This document shows, one piece after another, positions 2,321-49,651 of a stretch of 64,000 bases of DNA. Source of the stretch: Escherichia coli (GTDB lineage: Bacteria > Pseudomonadota > Gammaproteobacteria > Enterobacterales > Enterobacteriaceae). Position 1 is the first letter of the stretch; the number at the start of each line of letters is the position of its first letter. The translations under genes and the position numbers were made by a program. Location of the stretch: assembly GCF_003334785.1 (NCBI RefSeq), contig NZ_QOWV01000002.1; one strand, written 5' to 3'. Under the pieces are notes generated by a model, which did not search any database, was not told where the DNA came from, and worked only from the letters and a program-made list of their open reading frames with translations.

Positions 2321-2326
2321 ATCGCC

Positions 2327-9837: not shown

Positions 9838-9859
9838 TGACTGTTTAGCAAACTATGTT

Positions 9860-9890
9860 CGACCAGTCAGCATATTTGCTGACTGGTCGA
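9860..9890. terminator. Perfect 13-bp palindromic hairpin between convergent yfbK and elaD (bidirectional terminator candidate)
   Basis: cgaccagtcagca-tattt-tgctgactggtcg, flanked by A/T-rich sequence on both sides. Confidence 0.55.
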
Positions 9891-9907
9891 ATTAATTAAC
9901 AATGATG

Positions 9908-21274: not shown

Positions 21275-22923
21275 TTGGGACGATACTGAATCAGCACCAG
21301 ACGCTCCTGACGATCGATGGCATCTGCGGGCGGAATGGCGAGACTGTTGATATCTTCATCGCGGTCAACCGAAAGCACGAGAGTAATAATCCCCTCCTGA
21401 CGATGTTGATTAAGCCAGTTTGCGAACTCATCACCGCTGACAAATCTCCCTTTCGCATCCGGATAATTAAGGCCGTATTTCAACTCACCTGTCTGGCGAT
21501 ACATGATGATGTCATCGCGTTGCAGGCTCCATGCCAGACCTGCGGCAACACCGACGCTATCAGTAAGAATATAGCGGCTTGGCTGAAGTGATTCTTGTGT
21601 CATCTCGACAAAAAATTGCGGATGTTTTCCTTCCATAACTCTGTCAGGAATTGAAAATCCTACCAGCAACGCCAGCCCCAGCGGGCAAAGCGCGGCAAAA
21701 GGCCAGGTCTTTTCGACGTTTGTTAAGGTGTACCAGCCGAAAAATGCCCATAGCGAAAAAATCGACCAGGCACAAAAGACTTTATAGCTCTCGAAGGTTT
21801 GCCACACCGGCGTGTTCATTGGTCCCCACGGGGAGACCACAAATGTGGCAATAATGCCAGTGACGCCAAAAGCGATGTTAATCCAGCCATTAATCCGCAG
21901 CGCCAGAGGATTATTTTTTGCTGCCAGCAAAGCGTAATGCGCCATCAGCATTGCCAGAGATGCAAAGCAGGAAAGAATATAGGTGGGCAATTTACCTTTA
22001 GCGACGGAGAAAAACAGCAGCGGCATTATCGTCCAGCTCAACAAATAGACGGTTGCGGAATGCTTGCGGTTTTTCCAGCCTGTGTACAGTGCACCGGGGA
22101 GTAATCCCAGCCACGGCAGGCTACCGGCAATGATGACCGGCACGTAGTACCAGAACGGAGCTCTATGTTGGGCATCATCCAGTGCAAAGCGTTGAATATG
22201 CTCAACCCAGAAAAAATAGTGCCAGAAGTTAGGCTCCCGCTGCGCTATCGCCAGTCCCCAAGGGAGAACCGTCAGTACGCAACTGATAACCGCCAGCCAG
22301 CCGTAAATAAAGAGATCTTTCCAGCGTTTTTGCGTCGCTACCCATGGCAGCACGCTTAATACCGGCACGGCAAGGGCGAGAAAACCTTTGGTCATCACCC
22401 CCATGCCGCAGGTGATTCCCAGCAGTAAAAATCCTGCGCTTTTGCCTTTCCACGTCTGTGCCTGCATTGCCAGCCAGAAGCTGCACATTCCCGCCACCAG
22501 CCAGAATGCAATAAACGGATCGAGCACGGCATAAGTGCCGATGGCATAGACAATAAACAATGAGAGATAAATTACTGTGGCGAGTAGAGCCAGACGTTTA
22601 TCGCGCCATAAGCGCAGAGTAAACCAGGTCACCAGCGCGGCAGTTAACAGGGTCGCAAAGATAACGCCTGCCCGCACACCAAAGTTATTCGCGCCAAATA
22701 GCCATTGCCCAATGCTGTTAATCCAGTATCCGGCAATGGGTTTTTCGAAATAACGTAGCCCTAACAGATGGGGCACAATCCAGTCGCCGGATGCCAGCAT
22801 TTCTCGACTGATTTCCGCATAACGCGTTTCATCGGGTTGCCAGAGCAGACGCGTGCTGATCGGTAACAGGTAATAGCAGGCAATAAACGCGAAGAGGCCG
22901 ATAAGGTAACGTACCGATTTCAT
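21271..22923 (-). CDS. arnT: Lipid A 4-amino-4-deoxy-L-arabinose transferase ArnT
   Basis: 550-aa polytopic membrane glycosyltransferase ORF; operon position. Confidence 0.95.
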
Positions 22924-23813
22924 CAGCGACTACCCGCAATTTGTTGGCAACCCAGCCAGCCTTCACGTCCGGCAATATTTCCGCGAACAACTTGTCCGAG
23001 CGGCAACGTCTCTGATAACAGTTCGCTTAAAGGGCAAAATGTCACGCCTTCCTGAGCTGCGCGTTTGAGGAGATCCACAAAATTATGCTGATAAGCGCAG
23101 CCTTCAACTTCTGCATGAATGGTATAAACCGGCGTGCCTTTATCTCGCAGGATGCGGTTGAGTAACCAACCGTTAAAATCTTCTGCTTTCACATCCCGAC
23201 CAATCACTTCATCCCAGGTGGGTAAGGTCACCGGAATTTGCGCAGTGCCAGGGTTTCCTGATTCGAGCAATGGACGGAACGGCATGGCCCCACGACAATC
23301 GCTGTTGTAGCGCAAATGGAACGCTTCTTTTGCTTCGATCACCTTCTGGTCGGCACGCCAGCCCGCAGCGGCAGAACAGGTTACCGGTTGACCGATAATC
23401 TCTTCCAGAGTGCGAAGACCGCGTGCAATATCGTCGATCATTGTTTGCCGATCCCAGTTACCGCTACGGGCTTGCCAGGCATGGTGATCCCAGGCGTGCA
23501 GGCCGACTTCGTGATGTTTAGCCGCTTCACGAATGATATCGGCATTGGCATGACCAATCTCTTTACCTGGCCAGGCCGTACCTGCCAGTAAAATATCCCA
23601 GCCATAAAGCGATGCCGCGTTTGAGCGCAGCATCTTCCACAAAAACTGTGGCTTCACCAGTCGCCAGAGATGGCGGCCCATATTGTCCGGGCCGACGCTG
23701 AAAAAAATGCTGGCCTGAATATTATGCTTACTCAAGATTTCCAGCAGACGCGGCACGCCTTCACGGGTGCCACGAAAGGTATCGACATCAATGCGTAAGC
23801 CTACTTTGGTCAT
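22923..23813 (-). CDS. arnD: Ara4FN-undecaprenyl phosphate deformylase ArnD
   Basis: 296-aa polysaccharide-deacetylase-like ORF; operon position. Confidence 0.95.
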
Positions 23814-25791
23814 GATGGTTTATCCGTAAGATCAACGGTGCGCAGGAAGAAATCCAGCGTTTCGTCGATGGTTTCCTGCATATCAATTTTCGGCTCCCAG
23901 TCCAGGCAGCGGTGGGCATTGCGGATGCTCGGTTTACGATGCTCTACGTCCTGATATCCTTTGCCGTAGTAGCTGCTACTTTCGACAACGCGAAAGCCCG
24001 CAAACGGTGGGAAATGATGGCGCAGCGGATGTTTTTCGAAGCTCGCCAGCAGCATCTCGCCCAGTTCCTCAATGCTCGCTTCGTTCTCAGGATTGCCAAT
24101 GTTGATAATTTCACCGTCGCAGCGATTTCCCGCATTTTCGATAATGCGGTATAACGCCTCGATACCATCGCGAATATCAGTAAAGCAGCGTTTTTGTTTT
24201 CCGCCATCAATCAGCTTAATCGGTGAACCTTCTACCAGATTGAGAATGAGTTGCGTAATAGCGCGGGAGCTGCCAATTCGCGCTGCATTAAGGTTATCCA
24301 GTCGTGGTCCCATCCAGTTAAACGGGCGGAAGAGGGTGAACTGTAAACCCTCTTTTTCGCCATAGGCCCAGATCACCCGATCAAGTAATTGTTTTGATAC
24401 CGAATAAATCCAGCGTGGTTTATTCACCGGGCCGACGATTAAATTAGAATGGTCCTCATCGAAGTATTTATCGCTACACATCCCATAAACTTCTGAAGTT
24501 GACGGGAAGATGATTCGCTTACGGTACTTCACGCAGTAGCGGATAATGCGCAGATTCTCTTCAAAATCGAGTTCAAATACGCGCAGCGGGTTGCGGGTAT
24601 ATTCAATCGGCGTGGCTATCGCCACCAGCGGCAAGACGACATCACATTTTTTGACATGATACTCAATCCATTCGGAATGAATACTGATATCGCCTTCAAC
24701 AAAGTGAAAATGCGGATGATTCAGAAAACGGCTTATCGCATCGCTGCCAATATCCAGACCGTAAACTTCATAATGATCTTCGCGCAGCAGGCGTTCTGTC
24801 AGATGGTTGCCAATAAAGCCATTCACCCCGAGGATGAGTACCCGGGTACGGCGTCGGGCGGTGCAGGCAGGCTGGCTATTCAAGCGTGAACCTTGCACCA
24901 GGCCCAGCGTCTGCGCTAATTGCGAGCCCTGCATAGTAATGCCGTCGCCCGCCTGTCCGGTGACGATTTCCAGCGCGCCATCGCCACAGGCAATCAGCAG
25001 TGGCGCAACAGAAATCACGCTCCCCGGCTGTGCTTTGCTGGCATGAGGATGAACACGCGACGACCAGACGGTGAATTTCTGATTGCCAACATAGCTGAAG
25101 GCACCCGGCCACGGATCGGCAACGGCACGTACCATGTTGTGCAGTACGGATGCCGGTTTATGCCATTCAAGGAAACTGTCATCCGGCGTTCTGCGACCAA
25201 AACAGGTGGCTTCGTTTTCGCGCTGGGCGATTTCCAGAATATTACCGTGTTTAATGGCGGGTAATGTCTGTTCCAGTAGCTGGCGCGCGGCATGGCACAA
25301 TTTATGATGCAGCGTAATAGCGATATCGTCTGGCGCAATGGCAATGCGCAGTTGCGCCACAATGGCCCCGGCATCGGCACGTTTCACCATTCGGTGCAAT
25401 GTAACGCCAGTTTCCGTTTCACCGTTGACCAGCACCCAGTTCAGCGGCGCGCGACCACGATATTTTGGTAACAGCGAACCATGCAGATTAAATGCACCTG
25501 CGGGAGCGAGCTGCAAAATTTCGTCGTAAATAAGATGGCGATAATAAAAAGAGAAAATCACATCTGGCGACAGTTGGGCAATGCGTTCCACCCACAGCGG
25601 ATGATTAACGTTATCCGGCGCATAAACCGGAATGCCTCTTTCCGCCGCCAGACGAGCCACCGAACCATAAAAGGCTTTTTCACCGGGATTATCAGTATGG
25701 GTAAAAATGGCGCTAATTTCGTAACCGGCAGCCAGCAGGGCTTCAATACCGAGGCATCCCATATCGTGGTAGGCAAAAACGACGGTTTTCA

Positions 25792-25792
<1 letters not shown>
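23810..25792 (-). CDS. arnA: Bifunctional UDP-GlcA decarboxylase / UDP-Ara4N formyltransferase ArnA
   Basis: 660-aa ORF: N-terminal formyltransferase domain, C-terminal SDR domain with Rossmann motif ([14 protein letters not shown]). Confidence 0.95.
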
Positions 25793-26763
<971 letters not shown>

Positions 26764-27927
26764 TTATTGTCCTGCGAGTTGCTGAAGGGCTGTGATGACA
26801 TGGTCGGCATCGGCGGTAGTCATATCCGGGAACAGCGGCAAAGAACAGATGCGTTCGCTATTCCATTCGGTATTCGGTAACGACAGCGTGGGAAAACGCT
26901 CGCGATAATATTTTTGTGTGTGAGCGGCGCGGAAATGTAACCCGGTACCAATGCCTCTTTCTTTTAACGCTTCCATCAACGCATCGCGACTGATACCACA
27001 ACGTTGTTCATCGACACGAATAATAAACAGATGCCAGGCGTGAACGTGCGGCCAGGCGGGAAGGCTTAATGGCTGAAAGGGGAGAGCTGCCAGTGCTTGC
27101 TGATATTGCTGGGCAATTTCGCGCCGACGGGTGTTGAGGTGCTCTAATTTGACTAACTGTGTCAGGGCAATCGCGGCGTTAATATCGGTCAGATTGTACT
27201 TATAGCCCGGTGTTAAGACTTCAGCCTGCGGTGCACGGCCCCAGGTTTGTCTGTCATAGGCATCGACACCCAGACCGTGAAATTTCAGCATCCGTAGCTG
27301 GCGGGCAAGGTTTTCATTATCAGTTACAATCAGGCCACCTTCAGCACAGGTAATATTTTTAATGGCATGAAATGAAAAAATAGCGGTACCTTTTGCGCCA
27401 ATATGTCGCCCTTTGTAATACGTACCGACGGCATGGGCAGCATCTTCGATAACTGCGATGCCGTAACGTTCGCCAATGGCGTCAATATCTGCTGGCGCAC
27501 CGGCATAATGCACCGGAATGATGGCTTTAGTGCGTGGCGTAATGGCTGACTCGATAGCTTCAGGCGTGACCATCAGCGTATCGCGGTCGACATCCACCAT
27601 TACCGGCGTTGCACCCAACAAGGAAATCATATTGAGGGTTGAAACCCAGGTCAGGGAAGGCGTAATCACTTCATCGCCCTTGCCAATTTTCAACGCCATT
27701 AGCGTGATATGCATTCCGGCGGTGGCTGAACTGACCGCGATGGCATGCTGATTTCCCGTCAACTGGCAAAAAGCTTGCTCAAGCGCCTGATTCTTCGGAC
27801 CGGTTGTGATCCAACCGGATTCGAGAACCTCTTTAACTGCAGCGAGTTCCTCCACGCCCATTGCTGGTCGCGAAAAAGGCAAAAATTCTGACATTGCTTT
27901 TCCTTCCGCCATTGAATACCTGTCCAC
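26764..27927 (-). CDS. arnB: UDP-4-amino-4-deoxy-L-arabinose aminotransferase ArnB (start probably at 27912 or 27894)
   Basis: DegT/ArnB PLP aminotransferase ORF; track ORF starts at GTG; SD-like GGAAGGA precedes the MSEFLPF start. Confidence 0.95.
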
Positions 27928-27992
27928 TTATATTTGCTATAAAGAGTGTTGTGTATATTTTGCCATTTGGAGCGAAATTTTAAGGATAGAAT

Positions 27993-28009
27993 ATTAACTT
28001 AACCTTAAG
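27993..28009 (-). promoter_or_regulatory. Candidate PmrA(BasR) box upstream of arnB
   Basis: Minus strand reads CTTAAG-gttaa-GTTAAT, two hexamer half-sites spaced 5 bp, similar to the YTTAAK-N5-YTTAAK consensus; in arnB-ais divergent region. Confidence 0.5.
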
Positions 28010-28201
28010 AAACTAATATTAGACGTAAATATTGAAATTTTTATATTTTTTCTTATTTAGGCTTTGCATTTGGCAAAATTTTGAGGCATTTTGCCGACAT
28101 CGTAGGATTTTTAATATTACACCAACTGCGAATTATCGCCAGAAATGTAGCTCAATTTCACGGTAATTGTCTGGTTGCGCTTGTCTATAGGTGGAGTTTA
28201 C

Positions 28202-28804
28202 GTGTTAGCTTTTTGCCGCTCTTCGTTGAAGTCAAAAAAATATATCATCATTTTACTGGCGCTCGCTGCAATTGCCGGACTGGGTACTCATGCCGCCTGG
28301 AGTAGCAATGGTTTGCCACGTATCGACAATAAAACACTGGCCAGACTGGCACAGCAGCACCCGGTTGTCGTTTTGTTTCGTCATGCTGAACGTTGCGACC
28401 GTTCAACCAATCAATGCTTGTCAGATAAAACAGGTATTACGGTTAAAGGTACCCAGGATGCCCGTGAACTGGGCAACGCTTTTAGTGCTGATATCCCTGA
28501 TTTCGATCTTTATTCCAGTAATACCGTCCGGACCATTCAGTCGGCTACCTGGTTTTCAGCGGGTAAAAAATTGACGGTAGATAAACGACTTCTTCAGTGC
28601 GGTAATGAGATTTATAGTGCAATTAAGGACTTACAAAGCAAAGCGCCTGATAAAAATATCGTTATTTTCACCCATAATCATTGCCTGACATATATTGCTA
28701 AAGATAAGCGTGACGCGACATTTAAACCTGATTATCTGGATGGTTTAGTCATGCATGTGGAAAAAGGCAAAGTTTATCTGGATGGGGAATTCGTTAACCA
28801 CTAA
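28202..28804 (+). CDS. ais: Ais (PmrG-like) histidine-phosphatase-family protein, putative LPS core phosphatase
   Basis: Track ORF 28175..28804; GTG start at 28202 ([19 protein letters not shown]) after GGTGGAG SD gives 200 aa; signal peptide and RHAER motif (VVLFRHAER). Confidence 0.85.
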
Positions 28805-28842
28805 ATTTTCAATCTGACAGCCAGTAATGGCTGTCATCATTG

Positions 28843-29268
28843 TTACAGAAGACCTTTCAAACGTAACGTTTTTCGGGTGGCGACATTCAAATCATAATGC
28901 ACCAGATCTTCAGGTTTTACCCACGCGTAGTCCTGAAACTCTTCGTTTATTTTCACTTCTCGGTTGGCAGAAACGCAGTCAAAAATCAGGTAAATCATAT
29001 AAATCTCTTCCTTGCGACCATCTGCATACGTCTTGGTGCGAATATCATCGCTGAAGGTCCACGGCGTGATTTCTGTCAAAAGCAGCTGTTCTCCCAGTTC
29101 TTCGCGAATTTCGCGGCGTAGTGCCTCTTCAATTCGTTCGCCAGGCTCCACGCCGCCACCCGAAATCGCCCATTGACCGGGGAAAACGCCGCGATCGTCG
29201 GCCATTTTACACAGCAAATAAGCACCATCATTTTGAATCAAAGGGCATACAATAGTCCGTTGTCGCAC
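28843..29268 (-). CDS. nudI: Nudix hydrolase NudI
   Basis: 141-aa ORF with Nudix box [24 protein letters not shown]. Confidence 0.9.
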
Positions 29269-29546
29269 AGGGATATTCCTTATAAATAAAAAGAAACCAT
29301 GAGAATACGGTAACTCACAAATATGTGAAAGTGACAGTAATCTCTTTTGCGATGATAACTGTACTTATTATTATTTTTGTGTGTATCGATAAAGTGTGTT
29401 TATTTTTTCGGCATTTAATTATTTAAGAAGTATTTAGTTACAATAAGTGACTAGATCCTTTTTTTCGCTCATTGAATCCTCTGTGCCAGGCAGTACAATC
29501 CCGCAGCTTTGGGAATTTTGATTAATTGCTTGTGGGAAAGGGGATA

Positions 29547-30089
29547 ATGAAAAAAATTGCGCTAGCAGGTCTGGCCGGAATGCTGTTGGTTTCTGCATCG
29601 GTCAATGCAATGAGCATCAGCGGTCAGGCGGGTAAAGAATACACCAATATTGGTGTCGGTTTTGGGACTGAAACGACGGGCCTGGCGTTAAGCGGTAACT
29701 GGACACATAACGACGACGACGGTGATGTCGCTGGCGTGGGGCTGGGGTTGAATCTGCCTCTCGGGCCGTTAATGGCGACCGTTGGCGGAAAAGGCGTTTA
29801 CACCAACCCGAATTACGGCGATGAAGGTTATGCCGCAGCGGTAGGAGGTGGTTTGCAGTGGAAAATTGGCAACAGCTTCCGTTTGTTTGGCGAGTATTAC
29901 TACTCTCCGGATTCGCTCTCCAGCGGTATTCAAAGTTATGAAGAAGCGAATGCTGGCGCGCGTTACACCATTATGCGTCCAGTCAGTATTGAGGCGGGTT
30001 ATCGCTACCTGAATCTGTCGGGTAAAGACGGTAACCGCGACAACGCCGTGGCTGACGGCCCGTATGTTGGGGTTAACGCCAGTTTCTGA
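29547..30089 (+). CDS. yfaZ: Outer membrane protein YfaZ
   Basis: Track ORF starts at TTG 29526; ATG at 29547 with AAGGGG SD gives 180 aa; signal peptide, Gly/aromatic-rich beta-barrel-like sequence ending in F. Confidence 0.85.
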   Translation: MKKIALAGLAGMLLVSASVNAMSISGQAGKEYTNIGVGFGTETTGLALSGNWTHNDDDGDVAGVGLGLNLPLGPLMATVGGKGVYTNPNYGDEGYAAAVGGGLQWKIGNSFRLFGEYYYSPDSLSSGIQSYEEANAGARYTIMRPVSIEAGYRYLNLSGKDGNRDNAVADGPYVGVNASF

Positions 30090-30188
30090 TCCCTTCCGGC
30101 GCGGCATTCTGTCGCGCCATTCAGTTTCTTACTACGCCTTATCTCCCTTTGCGTTATAGTGATTCGATAACAAAAGCAGGAGATAACC

Positions 30189-31391
30189 ATGTTAAAAGTG
30201 GAAATGTTATCCACCGGGGATGAAGTGTTACACGGGCAAATCGTTGACACTAACGCTGCCTGGCTGGCCGATTTTTTCTTTCATCAGGGGTTGCCATTAT
30301 CTCGCCGCAATACGGTGGGGGATAACCTTGATGACTTAGTCACCATTCTTCGCGAACGTAGTCAGCACGCCGATGTGCTGATCGTTAACGGCGGGCTGGG
30401 ACCGACCAGCGATGATTTAAGCGCACTCGCCGCTGCGACAGCAAAAGGTGAAGGCCTGGTGCTGCATGAAGCCTGGCTCAAAGAGATGGAACGCTATTTC
30501 CACGAACGTGGACGAGTAATGGCACCGAGCAACCGTAAACAAGCGGAGCTGCCTGCCAGTGCTGAATTTATCAATAACCCGGTAGGCACCGCCTGTGGTT
30601 TTGCCGTGCAGCTTAATCGTTGCCTGATGTTCTTTACTCCCGGCGTACCGTCAGAATTTAAGGTGATGGTCGAGCACGAAATCCTGCCGCGCCTGCGCGA
30701 GCGTTTTTCTTTACCGCAGCCGCCGGTTTGTCTGCGTTTGACTACTTTTGGTCGTTCGGAAAGCGATCTGGCACAAAGCCTGGACACTCTACAACTGCCG
30801 CCGGGCGTAACAATGGGCTATCGCTCCTCAATGCCTATCATCGAACTGAAACTCACCGGACCGGCAAGCGAGCAACAGGCGATGGAAAAACTGTGGCTGG
30901 ATGTTAAACGTGTTGCCGGACAGAGCGTGATTTTCGAAGGCACTGAAGGACTGCCCGCGCAGATCAGTCGCGAATTGCAAAACCGCCAGTTCAGCCTGAC
31001 GTTGAGCGAGCAATTCACCGGTGGTTTATTGGCTTTGCAACTTTCTCGCGCAGGTGCTCCATTGCTGGCGTGTGAAGTGGTTCCTTCACAGGAGGAAACC
31101 CTGGCGCAAACTGCGCACTGGATTACAGAACGGCGGGCCAACCATTTTGCCGGGCTGGCACTGGCTGTTTCGGGTTTCGAGAACGAGCATCTCAACTTTG
31201 CGCTAGCCACGCCAGACGGCACTTTCGCTCTGCGTGTGCGTTTCAGCACTACGCGCTACAGCCTGGCTATCCGTCAGGAAGTGTGCGCAATGATGGCACT
31301 GAATATGCTGCGCCGTTGGTTAAACGGCCAGGATATCGCCAGTGAGCATGGCTGGATTGAGGTTGTTGAGTCCATGACCTTATCTGTCTGA
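30189..31391 (+). CDS. yfaY: CinA-like protein YfaY (MoCF-biosynthesis domain)
   Basis: 400-aa ORF; N-terminal MoaB/MogA-like domain (MLKVEMLSTGDEVLHGQIVDTNAAWL). Confidence 0.85.
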   Translation: MLKVEMLSTGDEVLHGQIVDTNAAWLADFFFHQGLPLSRRNTVGDNLDDLVTILRERSQHADVLIVNGGLGPTSDDLSALAAATAKGEGLVLHEAWLKEMERYFHERGRVMAPSNRKQAELPASAEFINNPVGTACGFAVQLNRCLMFFTPGVPSEFKVMVEHEILPRLRERFSLPQPPVCLRLTTFGRSESDLAQSLDTLQLPPGVTMGYRSSMPIIELKLTGPASEQQAMEKLWLDVKRVAGQSVIFEGTEGLPAQISRELQNRQFSLTLSEQFTGGLLALQLSRAGAPLLACEVVPSQEETLAQTAHWITERRANHFAGLALAVSGFENEHLNFALATPDGTFALRVRFSTTRYSLAIRQEVCAMMALNMLRRWLNGQDIASEHGWIEVVESMTLSV

Positions 31392-31610
31392 TTCCGCCAC
31401 TCTGTGCCGGTTTACTGCACCGGCACATTCCCCCTCCGGCAAAATTTGTCCAACCTGTTGTACTCAATAAGAAAAAATCCGTGCGCTGATTCACAAATTT
31501 GTGCGTAATTTCTCCAGTCTGCTGGACGAGGAGCGGGATTTGATGCGCTTCACAATTTTACTCCCCCTGAGCAACGAGACTGATTCCAGTATCTAAGACT
31601 GGAGTCCAGT

Positions 31611-32393
31611 ATGTTGGAATCAAGCAAAGTTCCCGCCCTGACACGGGCTATTGATATTCTCAATTTGATTGCCCGCATTGGCCCCTGTAGTGCTGCGACG
31701 ATCATTGACACATTGGGAATCCCTAAAAGCACGGCCTATTTGCTGCTTAATGAACTCAGGCGTCAGCGTTTTCTTAGCCTTGATCACCAGGAAAATTTTT
31801 GTTTGTGGACCAGGCTGGTGGAGCTTTCCGGTCATGCGTTAAGCAAGATGGATCTCCGGGAACTGGCTCGACCGCGTTTGACGCAACTGATGGATACCAC
31901 CGGGCTGTTATGTCACCTGGGGATTATTGATAACGGCAGCGCTTATTACATTTTGAAAGTGGAGTCATCAGCCACTATCAGCGTGCGTTCCCATGAAGGA
32001 AAAAGCCTTTCGCTTTATCGCTCCGGAATAGGTAAATGCCTGCTTGCCTGGCAACCTGCAGCGGTACAGCAAAGTATTATCGAAGGGCTGGTCTGGGAGC
32101 AGGCGACACCCACAACGATTACTCATCCACAGCAACTTCACGAAGAACTGGCGCGTATTCGCCGTCAGGGCTGGAGCTATGACAACGGCGAAGATTACGC
32201 CGATGTCCGTTGTGTCGCTGCGCCGGTGTTTAACGCCAATAACGAGCTTACCGCTGCGATCTCGGTGGTCGGTACCCGCTTACAAATCAATGAAGAATAC
32301 CGTGATTATCTGGCGGGCAAGGCCATTGCCTGCGCCAGGGATATTTCACGTCTGTTGGGATGGAAAAGTCCCTTTGACTTACAAGCCTCATAA
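31611..32393 (+). CDS. rhmR: IclR-family transcriptional regulator RhmR
   Basis: 260-aa ORF with N-terminal HTH and IclR effector domain; precedes rhmD-rhmT-rhmA. Confidence 0.9.
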
Positions 32394-32407
32394 CAATGGA
32401 GAACATC

Positions 32408-33613
32408 ATGACCCTACCAAAAATTAAACAGGTTCGCGCCTGGTTTACTGGCGGTGCGACAGCAGAAAAAGGCGCTGGCGGCGGTGATTATCACGACCAG
32501 GGGGCGAATCACTGGATAGACGATCATATTGCCACCCCGATGAGTAAATACCGCGATTACGAGCAGTCACGCCAGTCATTTGGCATTAACGTTCTTGGCA
32601 CGTTGGTTGTTGAAGTCGAAGCAGAAAACGGCCAGACCGGATTCGCCGTTTCGACAGCCGGTGAAATGGGCTGTTTTATTGTCGAAAAACATCTTAACCG
32701 TTTCATTGAGGGTAAATGTGTCAGTGATATCAAACTGATCCACGATCAAATGCTCAGTGCCACCCTGTATTACTCCGGCTCTGGTGGCCTGGTGATGAAT
32801 ACGATTTCTTGTGTCGATCTGGCTCTGTGGGATCTGTTCGGCAAAGTGGTCGGGCTTCCGGTTTATAAACTTTTAGGCGGCGCTGTTCGTGATGAGATTC
32901 AGTTCTACGCCACAGGTGCGCGTCCGGATCTGGCAAAAGAGATGGGCTTTATCGGTGGCAAAATGCCGACGCACTGGGGGCCACATGATGGCGATGCGGG
33001 GATCCGCAAAGATGCCGCTATGGTCGCGGATATGCGTGAAAAATGCGGTGAGGATTTCTGGTTAATGCTCGACTGCTGGATGAGTCAGGACGTGAACTAT
33101 GCGACCAAACTGGCCCACGCTTGCGCGCCCTATAACCTGAAATGGATCGAAGAGTGCCTGCCGCCACAGCAGTATGAAAGTTATCGCGAACTGAAACGCA
33201 ACGCGCCAGTCGGAATGATGGTCACCAGCGGTGAGCACCACGGCACACTGCAATCTTTTCGTACGCTTTCAGAAACCGGTATCGACATTATGCAGCCGGA
33301 TGTTGGCTGGTGCGGTGGTTTAACCACGCTGGTGGAAATTGCCGCAATCGCCAAATCCAGGGGGCAACTGGTGGTGCCGCACGGTTCGTCTGTTTACTCT
33401 CACCATGCGGTGATCACCTTCACCAATACGCCATTCAGCGAATTCCTGATGACCAGCCCGGATTGTTCAACGATGCGTCCGCAGTTTGACCCGATTCTGC
33501 TCAATGAGCCGGTTCCGGTGAATGGTCGTATTCATAAATCAGTGCTTGATAAACCCGGTTTTGGCGTCGAACTCAATCGTGACTGCAATTTGAAACGCCC
33601 CTACAGCCACTAA
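32408..33613 (+). CDS. rhmD: L-rhamnonate dehydratase RhmD (enolase superfamily); alternative start at 32396
   Basis: 401/405-aa ORF; GGAG SD precedes the second ATG; mandelate-racemase/enolase-like sequence. Confidence 0.9.
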
Positions 33614-33669
33614 TCACTCCGGGCGTTGCTGTGACAACGGTAACGCCCACATATTCTAAGGAGCTTTTT

Positions 33670-34958
33670 ATGAGCACCGCTTTGCTTGACGCCGTGGTGA
33701 AGAAAAACCGTGTGCGTTTAATTCCGTTTATGTTGGCGCTGTATGTGCTGGCGTTTCTCGACCGTTCGAATATCGGTTTTGCCAAACAGACCTACCAGAT
33801 TGATACCGGGTTGAGTAATGAAGCTTATGCGCTGGGAGCAGGCATTTTCTTTGTGGTATATGCGTTTCTGGGTGTTCCGGCGAATCTTTTGATGCGCAAA
33901 CTGGGGGCCAGAACCTGGATTGGTACGACAACACTGCTGTGGGGATTTCTTTCGGCAGCCATGGCATGGGCCGATACTGAAGCGAAATTTCTGATAGTTC
34001 GCACTCTGCTTGGTGCTGCGGAGGCCGGATTTTTCCCTGGTATGATTTATCTCACCTCGCAATGGTTTCCGCAGCGTAATCGCGCCAGCATTATGGGGCT
34101 GTTCTATATGGGCGCACCGCTGGCGTTAACACTGGGATCACCGCTTTCCGGCGCGCTGTTGGAGATGCATGGATTTATGGGGCATCCCGGCTGGTTCTGG
34201 ATGTTTGTGATTGAAGGATTGTTGGCAGTCGGTGCTGGGGTATTCACATTCTTTTGGCTTGATGACACACCGGAGCAGGCACGTTTTCTGAGTAAACAAG
34301 AAAAAACGTTGCTTATCAATCAACTGGCAAGTGAAGAACAACAGAAAGTGACTTCTCGGCTGAGCGATGCGCTGCGTAATGGCCGAGTCTGGCAACTAGC
34401 GATTATCTACCTGACCATTCAGGTGGCGGTTTACGGATTAATTTTCTTCTGCCGACCCAGGTTGCGGCATTGCTGGGAACAAAAGTGGGCTTTACAGCGT
34501 CGGTGGTCACCGCCATTCCGTGGGTTGCGGCCTTGTTTGGGACCTGGCTTATTCCGCGCTATTCCGATAAAACCGGCGAACGGCGTAATGTCGCAGCGCT
34601 GACATTACTGGCGGCGGGCATTGGTATTGGTCTGTCCGGGCTGCTTTCTCCAGTAATGGCGATCGTAGCGCTGTGTGTTGCAGCTATCGGGTTTATTGCC
34701 GTGCAGCCAGTGTTCTGGACGATGCCGACACAACTGCTTTCCGGTACGGCGCTGGCTGCGGGAATTGGTTTTGTAAACCTGTTTGGTGCAGTGGGCGGGT
34801 TTATTGCCCCGATCCTGCGCGTGAAAGCAGAAACGTTATTTGCCAGCGATGCGGCGGGATTACTGACGCTGGCAGCGGTGGCGGTCATCGGTTCGCTGAT
34901 TATTTTCACTCTGCGTGTAAATCGCACTGTTGCGCAGACCGACGTGGCACATCATTAA
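33670..34958 (+). pseudogene. rhmT: rhmT (MFS L-rhamnonate transporter) with a 1-bp deletion frameshift
   Basis: MFS ORF from 33670 (AAGGAG SD) changes frame near 34449 (attttcttc|tgccg); downstream frame (track ORF 34470..34958) continues MFS helices to the stop; one added base gives 429 codons. Confidence 0.8.
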
Positions 34959-34975
34959 ATAGGTTAAGGAACACG

Positions 34976-35779
34976 ATGAACGCATTATTAAGCAATCCCT
35001 TTAAAGAACGTTTACGCAAGGGCGAAGTGCAAATTGGTCTGTGGTTAAGCTCAACGACTGCCTATATGGCAGAAATTGCCGCCACTTCTGGTTATGACTG
35101 GTTGCTGATTGACGGGGAGCACGCGCCAAACACCATTCAGGATCTTTATCATCAGCTACAGGCGGTAGCGCCCTATGCCAGCCAACCCGTGATCCGTCCG
35201 GTGGAAGGCAGTAAACCGCTGATTAAACAAGTCCTGGATATTGGCGCGCAAACTCTACTGATCCCGATGGTCGATACTGCCGAACAGGCACGTCAGGTGG
35301 TGTCTGCCACGCGCTATCCTCCCTACGGTGAGCGTGGTGTCGGGGCCAGTGTGGCACGGGCTGCGCGCTGGGGACGCATTGAGAATTACATGGCGCAAGT
35401 TAACGATTCGCTTTGTCTGTTGGTGCAGGTGGAAAGTAAAACGGCACTGGATAACCTGGACGAAATCCTCGACGTCGAAGGGATTGATGGCGTGTTTATT
35501 GGACCTGCGGATCTTTCTGCGTCGTTGGGCTACCCGGATAACGCCGGGCACCCGGAAGTGCAGCGAATTATTGAAACCAGTATTCGGCGGATCCGTGCTG
35601 CGGGTAAAGCGGCTGGTTTTCTGGCTGTGGCTCCTGATATGGCGCAGCAATGCCTGGCGTGGGGAGCGAACTTTGTCGCTGTTGGCGTTGACACGATGCT
35701 CTACAGCGATGCCCTGGATCAACGACTGGCGATGTTTAAATCAGGCAAAAATGGGCCACGCATAAAAGGTAGTTATTGA
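34976..35779 (+). CDS. rhmA: 2-keto-3-deoxy-L-rhamnonate aldolase RhmA (HpcH/HpaI family)
   Basis: Track ORF 34673..35779 overlaps rhmT; start [21 protein letters not shown] at 34976 gives 267 aa. Confidence 0.9.
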
Positions 35780-35786
35780 TATCAAA

Positions 35787-35811
35787 GGCCCATGGGGATC
35801 GGCTGTGGGCC
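35787..35811. terminator. Hairpin between convergent rhmA and ypaA (terminator candidate)
   Basis: ggccca-tggggatcggctg-tgggcc with T-rich flank (tgtgtt). Confidence 0.4.
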
Positions 35812-35819
35812 TGTGTTAA

Positions 35820-36005
35820 TTAGTGGTTATTCGCTGCCAGATCGGCTTCGCTTAGCTGGGTGGCCGCGAGCACCTGGTCACGATCAAAGCCCTGTTCCAG
35901 CATGCGCAAAGCAATTTTAATGGCTTGTTCATGCAAACCTTCTAATTTACCTTCCTGCCAGCCAATTTGATGTCCTTCCTGCCGCAGCCGTTCAGCAATA
36001 GTCAT
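35820..36005 (-). CDS. ypaA: YpaA, small protein duplicating the C-terminal tail of YfaD/RpnE
   Basis: 61-aa [43 protein letters not shown]... near-identical to the last about 57 aa of the adjacent yfaD product, apart from a 4-aa insertion and a divergent C-terminus. Confidence 0.7.
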   Translation of the reverse strand: MTIAERLRQEGHQIGWQEGKLEGLHEQAIKIALRMLEQGFDRDQVLAATQLSEADLAANNH

Positions 36006-36201
36006 TAATCTCTCCTTTTAATGACAGTTCGGAATATCAGCATCAGTGAGTTGGGTTGTCGCCAGCACAATCTCACGTTCAAAGCCCTGCTCCAGCATGC
36101 GCAAAGCAATTTTAATGGCTTGTTCATGCATACCTTCCTGCCAGCCAATTTGATGCCCTTCCTGCCGTAGCCGTTCAGCAATAGTCATTAATCTCTCCTT
36201 T
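35820..36201. repeat. Tandem direct duplication of the yfaD 3' end (about 180 bp, including SD-ATG)
   Basis: Block caaaaggagagattaATGact... through ...gcgcatgctggagcagggctttga occurs twice (36018..36201 and 35820..36017 on minus strand) with a 12-bp indel and a few substitutions. Confidence 0.75.
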
Positions 36202-36917
36202 TGTAGTGGTGAACGTTCGGCAATCTCCTCAATAAAACGGGTGAAACGGGAGGTATCGCCGCATTGCAGCAGATAATTAAACAGTGTTTGTAGCTGGCTG
36301 TCATTAGTGAAGCCTCTAACCAAAAGCGTGGTGATCCTGTCGACCATGCCGATTAAATCGCGGTCGCGAATATGCTTTTGAATCAGTTCCAGCAGAGCTA
36401 TACGCCGATGTTGCATGATCTCATCGTCAGGTACGATGGTGATATCCACCAACGGAAAAGCTTCGGTGTACAACTGCCGGGCAAGTTGCGGATCGTCAAA
36501 CTCATCCAGCCAGTTGAGTGAGTACGGGTAAGGCGAGGTTTCGCCATGATAAAACAGCAACGGCACCACCAGCGGGACTCTGTCATAGCCTTTGTCCAGG
36601 TGACGCTGCATGGCGGCAGTGGCATAGCGCATTAGCCGAAAAGCCATATTCTTTTCTGCAGAGCTTTGATGTTCAATCACGCAGTAGATATAGCCGTCAC
36701 CGTCGCTGGTTTCCACGGACCACAAAACATCCGAGTAGTAAGCGCGTAAACTTTTTTCAATAAAACTAGTGGGTTCCAGGCGTAAGGTTTGCAGGTTGCA
36801 AAGCTTGCGCAGTGGTTCTGGTAAATGTATTTCGAGAAAATCCCGTGCGGTTTCGGGTGTGAACATAAAGGTTTTAAATACCGCATCATGCGGGGAGGAG
36901 GTTGTTGATTCGGTCAT
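36018..36917 (-). CDS. yfaD: Rpn-family (YhgA-like, transposase_31/PD-(D/E)xK) recombination-promoting nuclease YfaD/RpnE
   Basis: 299-aa ORF ([28 protein letters not shown]...); no flanking inverted repeats, so not an IS element. Confidence 0.85.
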
Positions 36918-37109
36918 GGTTGTCCGTCACCTGATATTTATGATGACGCGACATTACGGTTATCCCAGGCCTTTGACATCTGCCAGTTTCAGCCTTTGCG
37001 AGACGTTTTCAGAGGAATTTTCACTGCGTTGCAACGCATACATTGGGCACGGAATCGTGTACGCAAAAATGCCCGGTAACCACATGCTTACCGGGCATCA
37101 GAAAGGAGT

Positions 37110-41174
<4,065 letters not shown>

Positions 41175-41446
41175 TGTTATCCCTCTGAAGTTCGTTTTTT
41201 ACCATTTAGCCATAGTAAAAACATGAATTGTTTGATTTCGCGCATATTCGCTCATAATTCGAAAGTGAAACGTGATTTCATGCGTCATTTTGAACATTTT
41301 GTAAATCTTATTTAATAATGTGTGCGGCAATTCACATTTAATTTATGAATGTTTTCTTAACATCGCGGCAACTCAAGAAACGGCAGGTTCTCTCACTGAA
41401 TCAGGCTGTTAATCATAAATAAGACCACGGGCCACGGAGGCTATCA
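41175..41446. promoter_or_regulatory. Divergent glpACB / glpTQ control region with candidate GlpR operator repeats and CRP-like palindrome
   Basis: Repeated TTCG-centred motifs (tttgatttcgcgcat, tattcgctcat, aattcgaaag) around 41230..41265 and tgaaacgtgatttca palindrome near 41266..41280. Confidence 0.45.
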
Positions 41447-42805
41447 ATGTTGAGTATTTTTAAACCAGCGCCACACAAAGCGCGCTTACCTGCCGCGGAG
41501 ATCGATCCGACTTATCGTCGATTGCGCTGGCAAATTTTCCTGGGGATATTCTTTGGCTATGCGGCTTACTATTTGGTTCGTAAGAACTTTGCGCTTGCTA
41601 TGCCTTATCTGGTTGAGCAGGGATTCTCACGCGGTGATTTAGGTTTTGCCCTTTCGGGGATCTCGATTGCTTATGGATTTTCGAAATTCATCATGGGTTC
41701 GGTATCGGATCGCTCGAATCCGCGCGTTTTCCTGCCCGCAGGTTTGATTCTGGCGGCGGCAGTGATGTTGTTTATGGGCTTTGTGCCATGGGCGACGTCG
41801 AGCATTGCGGTGATGTTTGTACTGTTGTTCCTCTGCGGTTGGTTCCAGGGGATGGGGTGGCCGCCGTGTGGTCGTACTATGGTGCACTGGTGGTCGCAGA
41901 AAGAACGTGGCGGCATTGTGTCAGTGTGGAACTGTGCGCACAACGTCGGTGGTGGTATTCCGCCGCTGCTGTTCCTGCTGGGGATGGCCTGGTTCAATGA
42001 CTGGCATGCGGCGCTCTATATGCCTGCTTTCTGCGCCATTCTGGTGGCATTATTCGCCTTTGCGATGATGCGCGATACCCCGCAATCCTGTGGCTTGCCG
42101 CCGATCGAAGAGTACAAAAATGATTATCCGGACGACTATAACGAAAAAGCGGAACAGGAGCTGACGGCGAAGCAAATCTTCATGCAGTACGTACTGCCGA
42201 ACAAACTGCTGTGGTATATCGCCATCGCCAACGTGTTCGTTTATCTGCTGCGTTACGGCATCCTCGACTGGTCACCGACTTATCTGAAAGAGGTTAAGCA
42301 TTTCGCGCTAGATAAATCCTCCTGGGCCTACTTCCTTTATGAATATGCAGGTATTCCGGGCACTCTGCTGTGCGGCTGGATGTCGGATAAAGTCTTCCGT
42401 GGCAACCGTGGGGCAACCGGCGTTTTCTTTATGACACTGGTGACCATCGCGACTATCGTTTACTGGATGAACCCGGCAGGTAACCCAACCGTCGATATGA
42501 TTTGTATGATTGTTATCGGCTTCCTGATCTACGGTCCTGTGATGCTGATCGGTCTGCATGCGCTGGAACTGGCACCGAAAAAAGCGGCAGGTACGGCAGC
42601 GGGCTTTACCGGGCTGTTTGGTTACCTGGGCGGTTCGGTGGCGGCGAGCGCGATTGTTGGCTACACCGTGGACTTCTTCGGCTGGGATGGCGGCTTTATG
42701 GTAATGATTGGCGGCAGCATTCTGGCGGTTATCTTGTTGATTGTTGTGATGATTGGCGAAAAACGTCGCCATGAACAATTACTGCAAGAACGCAACGGAG
42801 GCTAA
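41447..42805 (+). CDS. glpT: Glycerol-3-phosphate:phosphate antiporter GlpT (MFS)
   Basis: 452-aa MFS ORF. Confidence 0.95.
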
Positions 42806-42809
42806 TGGC

Positions 42810-43886
42810 ATGAAATTGACGCTGAAAAACCTTAGCATGGCGATCATGATGAGCACTATAGTCATGGGAAGCAGTGCAATGGCGGCGGACAGCAACGAAA
42901 AAATAGTCATCGCCCATCGCGGTGCCAGTGGATATTTGCCGGAGCATACGCTGCCAGCAAAAGCGATGGCGTATGCGCAGGGAGCGGATTATCTGGAACA
43001 GGATTTGGTGATGACCAAAGACGACAATCTGGTTGTTCTGCATGACCATTACCTCGATCGTGTTACTGATGTTGCCGATCGTTTCCCGGATCGGGCGCGC
43101 AAAGACGGTCGTTACTACGCGATAGATTTCACGCTGGATGAAATTAAGTCGTTGAAATTTACCGAAGGTTTCGATATTGAAAACGGTAAAAAAGTGCAGA
43201 CTTATCCGGGGCGTTTCCCAATGGGTAAGTCCGACTTCCGGGTGCACACCTTTGAAGAAGAGATTGAATTTGTTCAGGGGTTAAATCACTCTACCGGGAA
43301 AAATATCGGTATTTATCCAGAAATCAAAGCGCCGTGGTTCCATCATCAGGAAGGGAAGGATATTGCGGCAAAAACGCTGGAAGTGCTGAAGAAATATGGT
43401 TACACCGGTAAAGACGATAAAGTTTATTTGCAATGTTTTGATGCTGATGAGCTGAAGCGTATTAAGAATGAGCTGGAACCCAAAATGGGCATGGAGCTCA
43501 ATCTGGTACAGCTGATTGCCTATACCGACTGGAATGAAACGCAGCAGAAACAGCCGGATGGAAGCTGGGTTAATTACAACTACGACTGGATGTTTAAGCC
43601 GGGTGCCATGAAACAGGTGGCGGAATATGCAGATGGTATTGGTCCGGATTACCATATGTTGATTGAGGAGACATCGCAGCCGGGTAATATCAAACTCACT
43701 GGCATGGTGCAAGATGCTCAGCAGAATAAACTGGTAGTGCATCCTTATACCGTGCGGTCAGATAAACTGCCTGAATACACTCCTGATGTGAATCAGTTAT
43801 ATGATGCTCTGTATAACAAAGCGGGTGTAAATGGGCTGTTTACTGATTTCCCTGATAAGGCAGTAAAATTTCTTAATAAAGAGTAA
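42810..43886 (+). CDS. glpQ: Periplasmic glycerophosphodiester phosphodiesterase GlpQ
   Basis: Track ORF starts in glpT; ATG at 42810 after GGAGG SD gives 358 aa with signal peptide and GDPD motif (IVIAHRGASGYLPEHT). Confidence 0.95.
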   Translation: MKLTLKNLSMAIMMSTIVMGSSAMAADSNEKIVIAHRGASGYLPEHTLPAKAMAYAQGADYLEQDLVMTKDDNLVVLHDHYLDRVTDVADRFPDRARKDGRYYAIDFTLDEIKSLKFTEGFDIENGKKVQTYPGRFPMGKSDFRVHTFEEEIEFVQGLNHSTGKNIGIYPEIKAPWFHHQEGKDIAAKTLEVLKKYGYTGKDDKVYLQCFDADELKRIKNELEPKMGMELNLVQLIAYTDWNETQQKQPDGSWVNYNYDWMFKPGAMKQVAEYADGIGPDYHMLIEETSQPGNIKLTGMVQDAQQNKLVVHPYTVRSDKLPEYTPDVNQLYDALYNKAGVNGLFTDFPDKAVKFLNKE

Positions 43887-43894
43887 TGTTACTG

Positions 43895-43920
43895 CAGGAT
43901 GGCGTTCATGCGCCATCCTG
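43895..43920 (+). terminator. Rho-independent terminator after glpQ
   Basis: caggatggcg-ttcat-gcgccatcctg hairpin 9 nt after the glpQ stop. Confidence 0.6.
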
Positions 43921-43927
43921 TCTCATA

Positions 43928-44179
43928 TCAAATTTTTCCAATCGCCACTAATTGTTCCATGCACATTTGTAGTAAAAACAGTGGACTGCCTTCTACCGGC
44001 TTTTCTTTAGCCAGCAACGAAATCTGTCGATAGAAAGTTGGTTCGAGAGGAACGGAACACAATTCACCTGCAATGCTTTTCAGCGTTAACTCTGGTTGTA
44101 AGGCGATGCCTAATCCCTGTCGAATAAAATTTATCGCTGTATCCGCCTGATTAAATTCACATTTTATCTGCTGGGCGCA
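43928..44179 (-). pseudogene. yfaH: LysR-family regulator C-terminal fragment (yfaH-like), no start codon
   Basis: Minus-strand open frame translating to ...IKCEFNQADTAINFIRQGLGIALQPELTLKSIAGELCSVPLEPTFYRQISLLAKEKPVEGSPLFLLQMC..., typical of a LysR effector-domain C-terminus; no HTH part or in-frame ATG. Confidence 0.5.
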
Positions 44180-44348
44180 CTATTAGTGGTAGTGGCTGGT
44201 GGAATCTATGCGCTGCAAATGAAGGGTAAAAGCGGTGTCAAGCTAGTAGTGGCAAAAGAAATTCATTAATACGACACGTTTCATTAAGATTTTCCTCAGG
44301 TAACCACCTATAGTCATTGTCGTTAATAAAAATGACAGGCGATAGGGT

Positions 44349-44999
44349 ATGGCAGTTTCAGCAAAGTACGACGAATTTAATCACTGGTGGGCAACAGAGG
44401 GCGACTGGGTTGAAGAGCCTAACTATCGCCGTAATGGTATGAGCGGGGTGCAATGCGTCGAGCGCAACGGCAAAAAGCTGTATGTAAAGCGCATGACGCA
44501 TCATCTGTTTCATTCCGTACGTTATCCGTTCGGCCGACCAACGATTGTCCGTGAGGTTGCGGTAATTAAAGAACTGGAACGGGCCGGTGTCATCGTGCCG
44601 AAGATCGTTTTTGGTGAAGCGGTGAAAATTGAGGGTGAATGGCGAGCGTTGCTGGTGACTGAAGATATGGCGGGGTTCATCAGCATTGCTGACTGGTATG
44701 CCCAGCATGCAGTATCGCCTTATTCTGACGAAGTACGGCAAGCCATGTTGAAAGCAGTGGCGCTGGCGTTTAAGAAAATGCATAGCATTAATCGTCAGCA
44801 TGGCTGTTGTTATGTTCGCCATATCTATGTGAAAACAGAAGGTAATGCAGAAGCTGGTTTTCTTGACCTGGAGAAAAGTCGTCGCCGCTTGCGTCGCGAT
44901 AAAGCGATTAATCATGACTTCCGCCAGCTGGAAAAATATCTGGAGCCAATCCCCAAAGCGGACTGGGAGCAGGTGAAAGCGTATTACTACGCCATGTAA
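44349..44999 (+). CDS. inaA: Acid-inducible Kdo/WaaP-family kinase-like protein InaA
   Basis: 216-aa ORF MAVSAKYDEFNHWWATEGDWVEEPNYRRNGMSGVQ... Confidence 0.9.
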   Translation: MAVSAKYDEFNHWWATEGDWVEEPNYRRNGMSGVQCVERNGKKLYVKRMTHHLFHSVRYPFGRPTIVREVAVIKELERAGVIVPKIVFGEAVKIEGEWRALLVTEDMAGFISIADWYAQHAVSPYSDEVRQAMLKAVALAFKKMHSINRQHGCCYVRHIYVKTEGNAEAGFLDLEKSRRRLRRDKAINHDFRQLEKYLEPIPKADWEQVKAYYYAM

Positions 45000-45003
45000 T
45001 CGT

Positions 45004-45047
45004 TGTAGGCCAGATAAGACGCATAAGCGTTGTATCTGGCACTACAA
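45004..45047. repeat. REP element downstream of inaA
   Basis: gtaggccagataagacgc...gcgttgtatctggcac inverted-repeat structure typical of REP. Confidence 0.45.
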
Positions 45048-45052
45048 CCAAT

Positions 45053-45307
45053 TCACATCTCGATTTCAATATCGCCTTTTGCCCGGCAACAACAGGGCAA
45101 AATTTCCCCCGGCTGAATAAAGGCTAACGGTTCGGCAATCCAGTCAACTTGACCTGCAACCAGGCGTGTGCGACAGGAGCCGCAGTAACCTTCGCGACAC
45201 TGGTACTCAACCGCCACATTGTGGGATTCCAGCGCCGCCAGAAGGGAAGGGTGTTCATCCTGGCACAGCAGTTGTGTGCCAGTGATGCGCAGGGTAACGC
45301 GGGCCAT
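45053..45307 (-). CDS. yfaE: 2Fe-2S ferredoxin YfaE (NrdB cofactor maintenance)
   Basis: 84-aa ORF with Cys pattern C-x4-C-x2-C...C (REGYCGSCRTRL); immediately downstream of nrdB. Confidence 0.9.
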   Translation of the reverse strand: MARVTLRITGTQLLCQDEHPSLLAALESHNVAVEYQCREGYCGSCRTRLVAGQVDWIAEPLAFIQPGEILPCCCRAKGDIEIEM

Positions 45308-46437
45308 CAGAGCTGGAAGTTACTCAAATCGTCGGTGTCCACTTCCGAGTCAATCTGCCCGACCAGATAAGAACTGACTTCCACTTCCTGCGGAGCAACC
45401 TGCACGTTATCAGACACCAGCCAAGTGTTGATCCACGGGATCGGGTTGGAGCGCGTCTGGAACGGCAGATCCAAACCGACTGCCTGCATACGGATATTGG
45501 TGATGTATTCAACGTACTGGCAGAGAATGTCTTTATTCAGACCAATCATCGAACCGTCGCGGAACAGATAATCCGCCCAGTCTTTCTCCTGTTGAGCTGC
45601 CTGAACAAACAGGTCATAGCACTCCTGCTTACACTCTTCGGCAATTTCCGCCATCTCAGGATCGTCCGCGCCGCTGCGCAGCAGATTCAGCATATGCTGG
45701 GTGCCGGTCAGGTGCAGGGCTTCGTCGCGGGCAATCAGGCGAATAATTTTGGCGTTGCCTTCCATCAATTCGCGTTCTGCAAATGCGAAGGAACAAGCAA
45801 AGCTGACGTAGAAACGAATCGCTTCCAGCGCGTTAACGCTCATCAGGCAGAGATACAGTTTTTTCTTCAGCTCGCGCAGGCTAACGGTCACAGTTTTACC
45901 GTTAACGGTGTGGGTACCTTCGCCCAGCAGATGCCAGTAGCTGGTCATTTCGATCAGCTCATCGTAATAGCTGGAGATCCCTTCCGCACGTTTCTGGATC
46001 TGCTCGTTGGTGACGATATCGTCAAACACAACAGACGGATCGTTAACGATATTACGAATGATATGAGTATAGGAACGGGAATGAATCGTTTCTGAGAACG
46101 CCCAGGTTTCGACCCAGGTTTCCAGTTCCGGAATAGAAATAAGCGGCAATAGCGCCACGTTCGGGCTACGACCCTGAATGGAATCCAGCAGCGTCTGATA
46201 TTTCAGGTTGCTGATAAAGATGTGTTTTTCGTGCTCCGGCAGCGCCTGGTAATCTATACGGTCGCGGGAGACGTCAACTTCTTCCGGACGCCAGAAGAAA
46301 GAGAGCTGCTTTTCGATCAGCTTTTCGAAGATGTCATATTTTTGCTGATCGTAGCGAGCCACGTTGACCGGCTGACCAAAGAACATCGGTTCTTTGAGCT
46401 GATCATTTTTCGTCTGTGAAAAGGTGGTATATGCCAT
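45307..46437 (-). CDS. nrdB: Class Ia ribonucleotide reductase beta subunit NrdB
   Basis: Track ORF extends upstream through REP sequence; start [22 protein letters not shown] at 46437 gives 376 aa. Confidence 0.95.
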
Positions 46438-46461
46438 GAGTGTGTCCTGTTGGGAGTTTAA

Positions 46462-46661
<200 letters not shown>

Positions 46662-46670
46662 ATCTCAATA

Positions 46671-48956: not shown

Positions 48957-49033
48957 GTATGTCGTACCTGTTTTTGGAATTCTTTCCGCAATAGTTTCAT
49001 GCAGACTACCTGTAGTACGGGAAGCTGCTTAGA

Positions 49034-49079
49034 ACACTATATATAGGGGGTATGTTTGGGATTCACTGCAAGATAGTGT
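49034..49079 (-). promoter_or_regulatory. Candidate tandem NrdR boxes in nrdA promoter
   Basis: ACACTATATATAG (49034..49046) and a degenerate AGATAGTGTG partner about 32 bp away; about 80-120 bp upstream of nrdA start. Confidence 0.45.
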
Positions 49080-49104
49080 GAAAATGACCCTCTTGCAAGT
49101 GCAT

Positions 49105-49113
49105 AACTTTGTG
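49105..49113 (-). promoter_or_regulatory. DnaA box (TTATCCACA) upstream of nrdA
   Basis: Plus strand gtggataac is the reverse complement of the DnaA box consensus. Confidence 0.45.
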
Positions 49114-49651
49114 GATAACTCAGGAAGGAAAAAGTGGCTTTCGCGCACCTTAGGTCAGACAAGGTGTCCGGGAAAGTCAATGGGAAGAGAAAAATTTGTT
49201 AAAAATAACTGTTCGGCGATTTCTTGAACGGCATAATAGGTTAGATAAATTGATATAGATGGTTTATTAATCTTTTTGCTAATGATTGCAAAAATTGATC
49301 TAAGCACGAGTCATCACATAATCTGATGTATCAGTTGTGGTCAATATATAAGCGAATGTAAGAGATTGTTGATGGCGAAATGGTTGTTTTCTATTCGGTT
49401 ATTGTTAAATGCTAAGCCATTTTGTTAATTTACCTTATATTATAAGAAAATTATTCATGACTTTAATTTAGTTTAAATATAACTGATATCCCTGAAGGTT
49501 ATTAACTTGAATTATGACGCACTGATATTATTCATCAAATAATAACAAAATAGCCATTGCACCGGGTTGAACAATTTACAAAAGAAAGATATTCCATATC
49601 GTATAATGCGATTAAATACGCCGTCTTATAGAAAATGATGGTTAGATTAAT

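Follow-up and report, generated by a model that had tools for sequence, protein, structure and literature searches.

A clonally shared one-nucleotide deletion breaks rhmT, the gene of a putative L-rhamnonate transporter, in a lineage of Escherichia coli

Introduction

In the stretch of Escherichia coli DNA analysed here (64,000 nucleotides, referred to as the window in the following), the transporter gene rhmT (yfaV) is an ordinary, recent and lineage-specific pseudogene in a dispensable operon, i.e. a case of routine gene decay. It lacks a single C, and the explanation that best accounts for the evidence, which we hold with high confidence, is a genuine, vertically inherited deletion of one nucleotide, probably a recent and neutral or nearly neutral loss in an often-discarded locus. 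The allele is already known, in that PGAP labels the gene as frameshifted in two RefSeq genomes and the shortened protein is present in GenBank.

RhmT/YfaV of E. coli K-12 (UniProt P76470) belongs to the ACS family of MFS transporters (TC 2.A.1.14), as a putative L-rhamnonate:H+ symporter. Its gene is part of the cluster rhmR-rhmD-rhmT-rhmA, which lies on the plus strand and places rhmT between the genes for L-rhamnonate dehydratase (rhmD) and 2-keto-3-deoxy-L-rhamnonate aldolase (rhmA). RhmD is reported to accept L-rhamnonate, L-lyxonate and L-mannonate as substrates (Rakus et al. 2008). According to the annotation of the near-identical strain JKHS016, the window covers the nuoL to yfaS region of the E. 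coli chromosome. In the following, we describe the lesion and its predicted consequences, the other genomes that carry it, and the alternative readings of the broken frame.

The lesion and its consequences for RhmT

The features of the rhm cluster are listed in Table 1. The computed length of rhmT is not divisible by three, and an alignment with the alleles of ATCC 8739 and CP8-3_Sichuan contains a single gap within the gene and no other differences; where the intact alleles read TTCTTCCTGCCG, the window reads TTCTTCTGCCG. As this gap falls on a CC pair, one C is absent immediately after position 34449. This affects codon 261 (Leu), directly past F260, and, by alignment and hydropathy, coincides with the end of TM7 (LAIIYLTIQVAVYGLIFF). 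Except for this one base, the gene is identical at the nucleotide level to the intact alleles of its close relatives. A preliminary description, made from the sequence alone, had placed a -1 frameshift near 34449 and suggested an alignment to a reference rhmT; the alignment bears out the frameshift as a one-nucleotide gap and shows that the coordinates and the missing base given there were exact.

Table 1. Features of the rhm cluster and of the rhmT lesion in the window
Feature	Position	Strand	Basis
rhmR (yfaX), IclR-family regulator, intact	31611..32393	+	IclR-family profile matches; no differences vs CP8-3_Sichuan
rhmD, L-rhamnonate dehydratase, intact	32408..33613	+	NF011968, 820 bits (cut-off 393); no differences vs CP8-3_Sichuan
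rhmT (yfaV) pseudogene, ACS-family MFS transporter	33670..34958	+	1289 nt vs 1290 nt in intact alleles
Shortened rhmT frame: 260 native and 50 out-of-frame residues, ending with TGA at 34600..34602	33670..34602	+	Translation
Deletion junction, C lost from ancestral CC, TTCTTC(C)TGCCG	34449..34450	+	Alignments, pairwise differences
3' rhmT remnant in the original frame, TM8-TM12	34470..34958	+	162-aa ORF with TTG start
rhmA (yfaU), 2-keto-3-deoxy-L-rhamnonate aldolase, intact	34976..35779	+	NF007521, 596 bits (cut-off 441); no differences vs CP8-3_Sichuan

Translated from its ATG, the gene proceeds to ...VAVYGLIFF and then continues as CRPRLRHCWEQ... up to the premature TGA, with a 50-residue out-of-frame tail that is basic and not membrane-like. 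The frame that starts at 34449 reads LPTQVAALLGTKVGF... and remains open up to position 34958, the normal rhmT stop, with the continuation LPTQVAALLGTKVGFTASVVTAIPW.... Both frames had been given in the preliminary description and are reproduced by our translation, as is its arithmetic for the repaired gene: re-insertion of a C after 34449 yields 1290 nt, or exactly 430 codons, and a protein of 429 aa, which is 100% identical to WP_001295288.1, the product of the intact yfaV of CP8-3_Sichuan. This identity, together with the position between rhmD and rhmA, establishes orthology. The window thus shares with K-12 RhmT (P76470; WP_001295288.1) both the flanking genes and the full sequence of the restored protein, whereas, compared to the intact K-12 protein, it is in frame for residues 1-260 only, with the C gone at codon 261.

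The best profile match of the restored protein is TIGR00893 (2A0114, D-galactonate transporter subfamily; E = 2e-74, residues 24-415), with a score of 250.8 bits that falls short of the curated cut-off for this subfamily, 395. For the shortened product of 310 aa, a match to PF07690 (MFS_1) is on record. No single frame of the window encodes the complete fold of 12 TM segments, since the break after F260 leaves TM8-12 out of frame, and rhmT thus counts as a pseudogene of the MFS/ACS family and not as a functional member of it. MFS carriers need both of their six-helix bundles, and TM8-12 are needed for the C-terminal one. Given that these helices are missing, loss of function is to be expected, and the RhmT carrier of the window strain is most likely non-functional.

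The remainder of the operon is unharmed, as had been claimed at the outset. The dehydratase, the aldolase and the IclR-family regulator are all present and intact, with sequences as in strains that have an intact operon, and both RhmD and RhmA exceed the NCBIfam equivalog cut-offs (NF011968 and NF007521, respectively). The product of rhmR, WP_000894185.1, is common to carriers of the deletion and to strains with intact rhmT. At the level of expression, the start of rhmA lies 373 nt downstream of the premature rhmT stop, and Rho-dependent polarity over these 373 nt of untranslated mRNA may reduce the expression of the aldolase gene. The preliminary description had further proposed that rhamnonate uptake might be specifically lost in this strain. 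We regard this as plausible and as a reasonable proposal, in which one inference is stacked on another.

Carriers of the allele and the quality of the base call

To judge whether the deletion is real, its occurrence in other assemblies is of particular relevance. Among the 5426 complete RefSeq genomes of E. coli, a 70-nt query spanning the junction has a 100% match in exactly two, those of JKHS016 and AST198; all other matches in this set have less than 99% identity. The respective genes, WAZ83_RS02990 (JKHS016, NZ_CP147059.1) and ACZ44X_RS12655 (AST198, NZ_AP043606.1), share the deletion and are identical to the window over 1289 of 1289 nt; PGAP labels both as yfaV, 'MFS transporter, frameshifted'. 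By contrast, every close relative examined, i.e. ATCC 8739, CP8-3_Sichuan and the other top hits, has an in-frame rhmT of 1290 nt. JKHS016, a strain of ST43 with a hybrid assembly from Illumina and ONT reads, was obtained from hospital wastewater in Japan, and AST198 from a human, also in Japan.

Both carriers differ from the window by a few SNPs or indels elsewhere in the 64 kb and represent different isolates. The window is not JKHS016 itself, given four SNPs over positions 1..32000 (9133, 10106, 16652 and 31406), which show that it stems from another isolate of the clone to which JKHS016 belongs; the last of the four is intergenic, between yfaY and rhmR, and upstream of the rhm operon. Neither is it AST198, from which it is set apart by a 45-bp indel in glpT and two SNPs over positions 32001..64000.

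Draft assemblies extend this picture. When the exact product of 310 aa, including its out-of-frame tail, was searched in 255 collection blocks of assemblies from NCBI, ENA and Logan, drafts included, it was found on 179 public contigs. An example in GenBank is KDY69760.1, which is named 'inner membrane transport protein RhmT'. The same gap is present in three NCBI drafts (GCA_030003255.1, GCA_000704785.1 and GCA_902859395.1) and in the Logan assembly of ERR3469019, and in these four the locus is 100% identical to the window across 3 kb. Within positions 32670..35669, which comprise the 3' part of rhmD, rhmT and most of rhmA, we searched for secondary mutations and found none; this segment is 100% identical among five carriers.

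A side observation from the protein clustering at 90% identity concerns the composition of the clusters. Cluster 1, which holds the shortened RhmT, also contains many RhmA aldolases of 267 aa, and cluster 2 contains an L-rhamnonate dehydratase from Acinetobacter. Unrelated neighbouring proteins appear to have become linked here, perhaps via fused or mis-called ORFs; we see in this a database oddity and not a part of the biology of the window.

With these carriers at hand, it can be asked whether the true genome has the CC pair and one base was lost merely in the consensus, as errors of assembly most commonly take the form of single-base indels. The site itself gives little reason for such an error, being a dinucleotide without a homopolymer run, and no fewer than six further independent assemblies share the identical gap, namely the JKHS016 hybrid, AST198, the three drafts and the Logan assembly of ERR3469019, in addition to the many contigs that encode the shortened product. 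Moreover, in a comparison with the near-identical CP8-3_Sichuan across positions 22000..46000, the only differences besides the rhmT deletion are an indel of 9 bp in arnB and a SNP at 44132. The rhmT deletion is thus the sole single-base indel in 24 kb relative to a strain with an intact gene, a frequency from which we conclude that the assembly is not noisy. We therefore consider a sequencing or assembly artefact extremely improbable.

The preliminary description had named two observations that would speak against a lesion. One was read evidence for an extra C at this site, against which the independent assemblies argue. The other was a reference sequence that is split in the same way. This is indeed seen in two RefSeq genomes and in many drafts, all of which belong to the same clone; they confirm the allele as real and do not make the split the normal state of the gene. 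We conclude that the deletion is genuine and was inherited within a single clone, with the base call supported indirectly, through identical independent assemblies.

Could the broken gene still yield a transporter?

A real deletion could in principle be tolerated if the ribosome were to bypass it, i.e. if programmed -1 frameshifting or another form of recoding restored full-length RhmT. The two frames do share one base, C34449, and a -1 slip at this position would in principle restore the protein. Yet the junction, ATT TTC TTC TGC, does not contain a slippery heptamer of the type X XXY YYZ, and a -1 slip would force tRNA-Phe to re-pair with CUU. Nor was a stimulatory RNA structure found in the 91 nt downstream: this segment has a minimum free energy of -29 kcal/mol compared to a mean of -32.3 for shuffled sequences, and it folds no better than these (z = +1.0; 168 of 200 shuffles fold at least as well). 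Recoding sites are conserved across orthologues, whereas the shifted form is limited to one clone, with two representatives among the 5426 complete genomes. Lacking both the heptamer and the downstream structure, programmed frameshifting in rhmT was rejected, and we assign recoding of any kind a virtually negligible probability.

Alternatively, the two parts of the gene might be made separately, with a fragment comprising TM1-7 and another comprising TM8-12, initiated at the TTG at 34470, assembling into a working carrier. Bibi and Kaback are said to have observed in 1990 that co-expressed LacY fragments assemble in this manner. In rhmT, the break is located in the loop between TM7 and TM8, and an in-frame ORF that spans TM8-12 persists, both of which would suit such an arrangement. 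The expression of the second fragment is the difficulty: its ORF starts with a TTG that is preceded by a weak AGG 8 nt upstream, and that lies inside the translated out-of-frame tail, with no nearby stop codon that would allow coupling. We therefore expect that this ORF of 162 aa is probably not translated. Gene callers, too, choose an ATG ORF of 100 aa downstream instead of it. In addition, the N-terminal fragment bears the highly basic, aberrant tail of 50 residues, and the downstream ORF is devoid of the LPTQVAAL segment. A split transporter is, in our view, very improbable, which leaves a non-functional carrier as the preferred reading.

Origin and significance of the allele

We propose that the loss of one C from the CC pair at codon 261 happened a single time, in a lineage of phylogroup A that is related to ST43, and that the deletion would then have been inherited vertically within this lineage. 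The resulting frameshift at the end of TM7 gives a product that consists of TM1-7 and the aberrant basic tail but lacks TM8-12, while rhmR, rhmD and rhmA stay intact, with a possible decrease of rhmA expression by polarity. The absence of further decay in rhmT suggests a recent loss that was neutral or nearly so.

A different view of the same history would be that the frameshift was not neutral but selected in the ST43-related lineage, for example because it kept a toxic analogue of a sugar acid out of the cell or rewired the expression of rhmD and rhmA, or that the two fragments form a carrier of altered specificity. The members of this lineage include an ESBL isolate from hospital wastewater and an astA-positive outbreak isolate. 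We deem a selected or re-purposed allele very improbable.

A near-neutral loss is in keeping with the fate of the locus elsewhere, as the rhm locus decays often in E. coli. Among the 5426 complete genomes, 1254 (~23%) have no match to rhmT. In strain 55989 (locus L010, 1467..1928), yfaY is directly followed by a 3' fragment of rhmA; the deletion has removed rhmR, rhmD and rhmT together with the 5' end of rhmA and corresponds to about 31400..35300 in the window. Six other sampled genomes resemble 55989 in their equally low coverage and in the annotation of the flanks. In strain 1223 (locus L011), an IS1 element is inserted within rhmT. Like the window, 55989 and 1223 have lost the putative transporter, and they show that the locus is dispensable. 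They differ in the mechanism, a large deletion in 55989 and an IS insertion in 1223, as opposed to the one-nucleotide deletion in the window that leaves the other three genes of the operon intact.

In the literature, we found no account of this rhmT allele, and a search for rhmT, yfaV and rhamnonate gave one relevant preprint (bioRxiv 10.64898/2026.05.20.726482); the supplement of the AST198 paper does not mention the strain. According to this 2026 preprint, no substrate could be assigned to RhmT, since L-rhamnonate does not support growth of the K-12 strain BW25113 and the purified protein was unstable and aggregated (10.64898/2026.05.20.726482). In comparison with an isogenic strain in which the deletion is repaired, natural carriers could help to settle the substrate of RhmT, given a background that expresses the pathway. 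Beyond this, the allele serves as a clean marker of a single clonal lineage of E. coli, of little significance outside of strain bookkeeping, and it adds one more case to the repeated decay of the rhm locus. Since the frameshift is real, annotation pipelines and metabolic models of this strain should drop RhmT.

Other features of the window

Several further differences from related genomes came to light in the window. Relative to CP8-3_Sichuan, arnB (about 26764..27894, minus strand) lacks 9 bp in frame at position 27474, where CP8-3_Sichuan reads gccAATGGCGCGAATGGCGtcaat and the window gccAATGGCGtcaat. A short direct repeat has thereby lost one of its copies, as would be expected from a slipped-strand deletion. 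The resulting ArnB protein is 3 aa shorter, and this form is common to JKHS016 and AST198 (gene of 1131 nt, WP_032183010.1).

The deubiquitinase gene elaD (9908..11118, minus strand, 1211 nt) falls apart into two ORFs (10369..11118 and 9908..10348); PGAP flags it as frameshifted in both JKHS016 and AST198. All 14 of the 14 best-listed genomes have the length of 1211 nt, and the split form of elaD seems to be far commoner than the rhmT allele. The window copy has a private SNP at 10106.

Downstream of rhmA, the window encodes rpnE (36018..36917, minus strand), an ISNCY/Transposase_31-like protein of 299 aa. It is followed by an ORF of 61 aa (35820..36005), which repeats the C-terminal HTH_Rpn_C domain of RpnE and looks like a partial tandem duplicate. 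Its annotation by PGAP varies by genome between a partial pseudogene and a hypothetical protein.

Finally, the indel in glpT that separates the window from AST198 corresponds to 45 bp at positions 42704..42748, which the window shares with JKHS016 and which AST198 lacks. In AST198, this amounts to an in-frame deletion of 15 codons (1314 nt compared to 1359 nt), which could be related to fosfomycin resistance.
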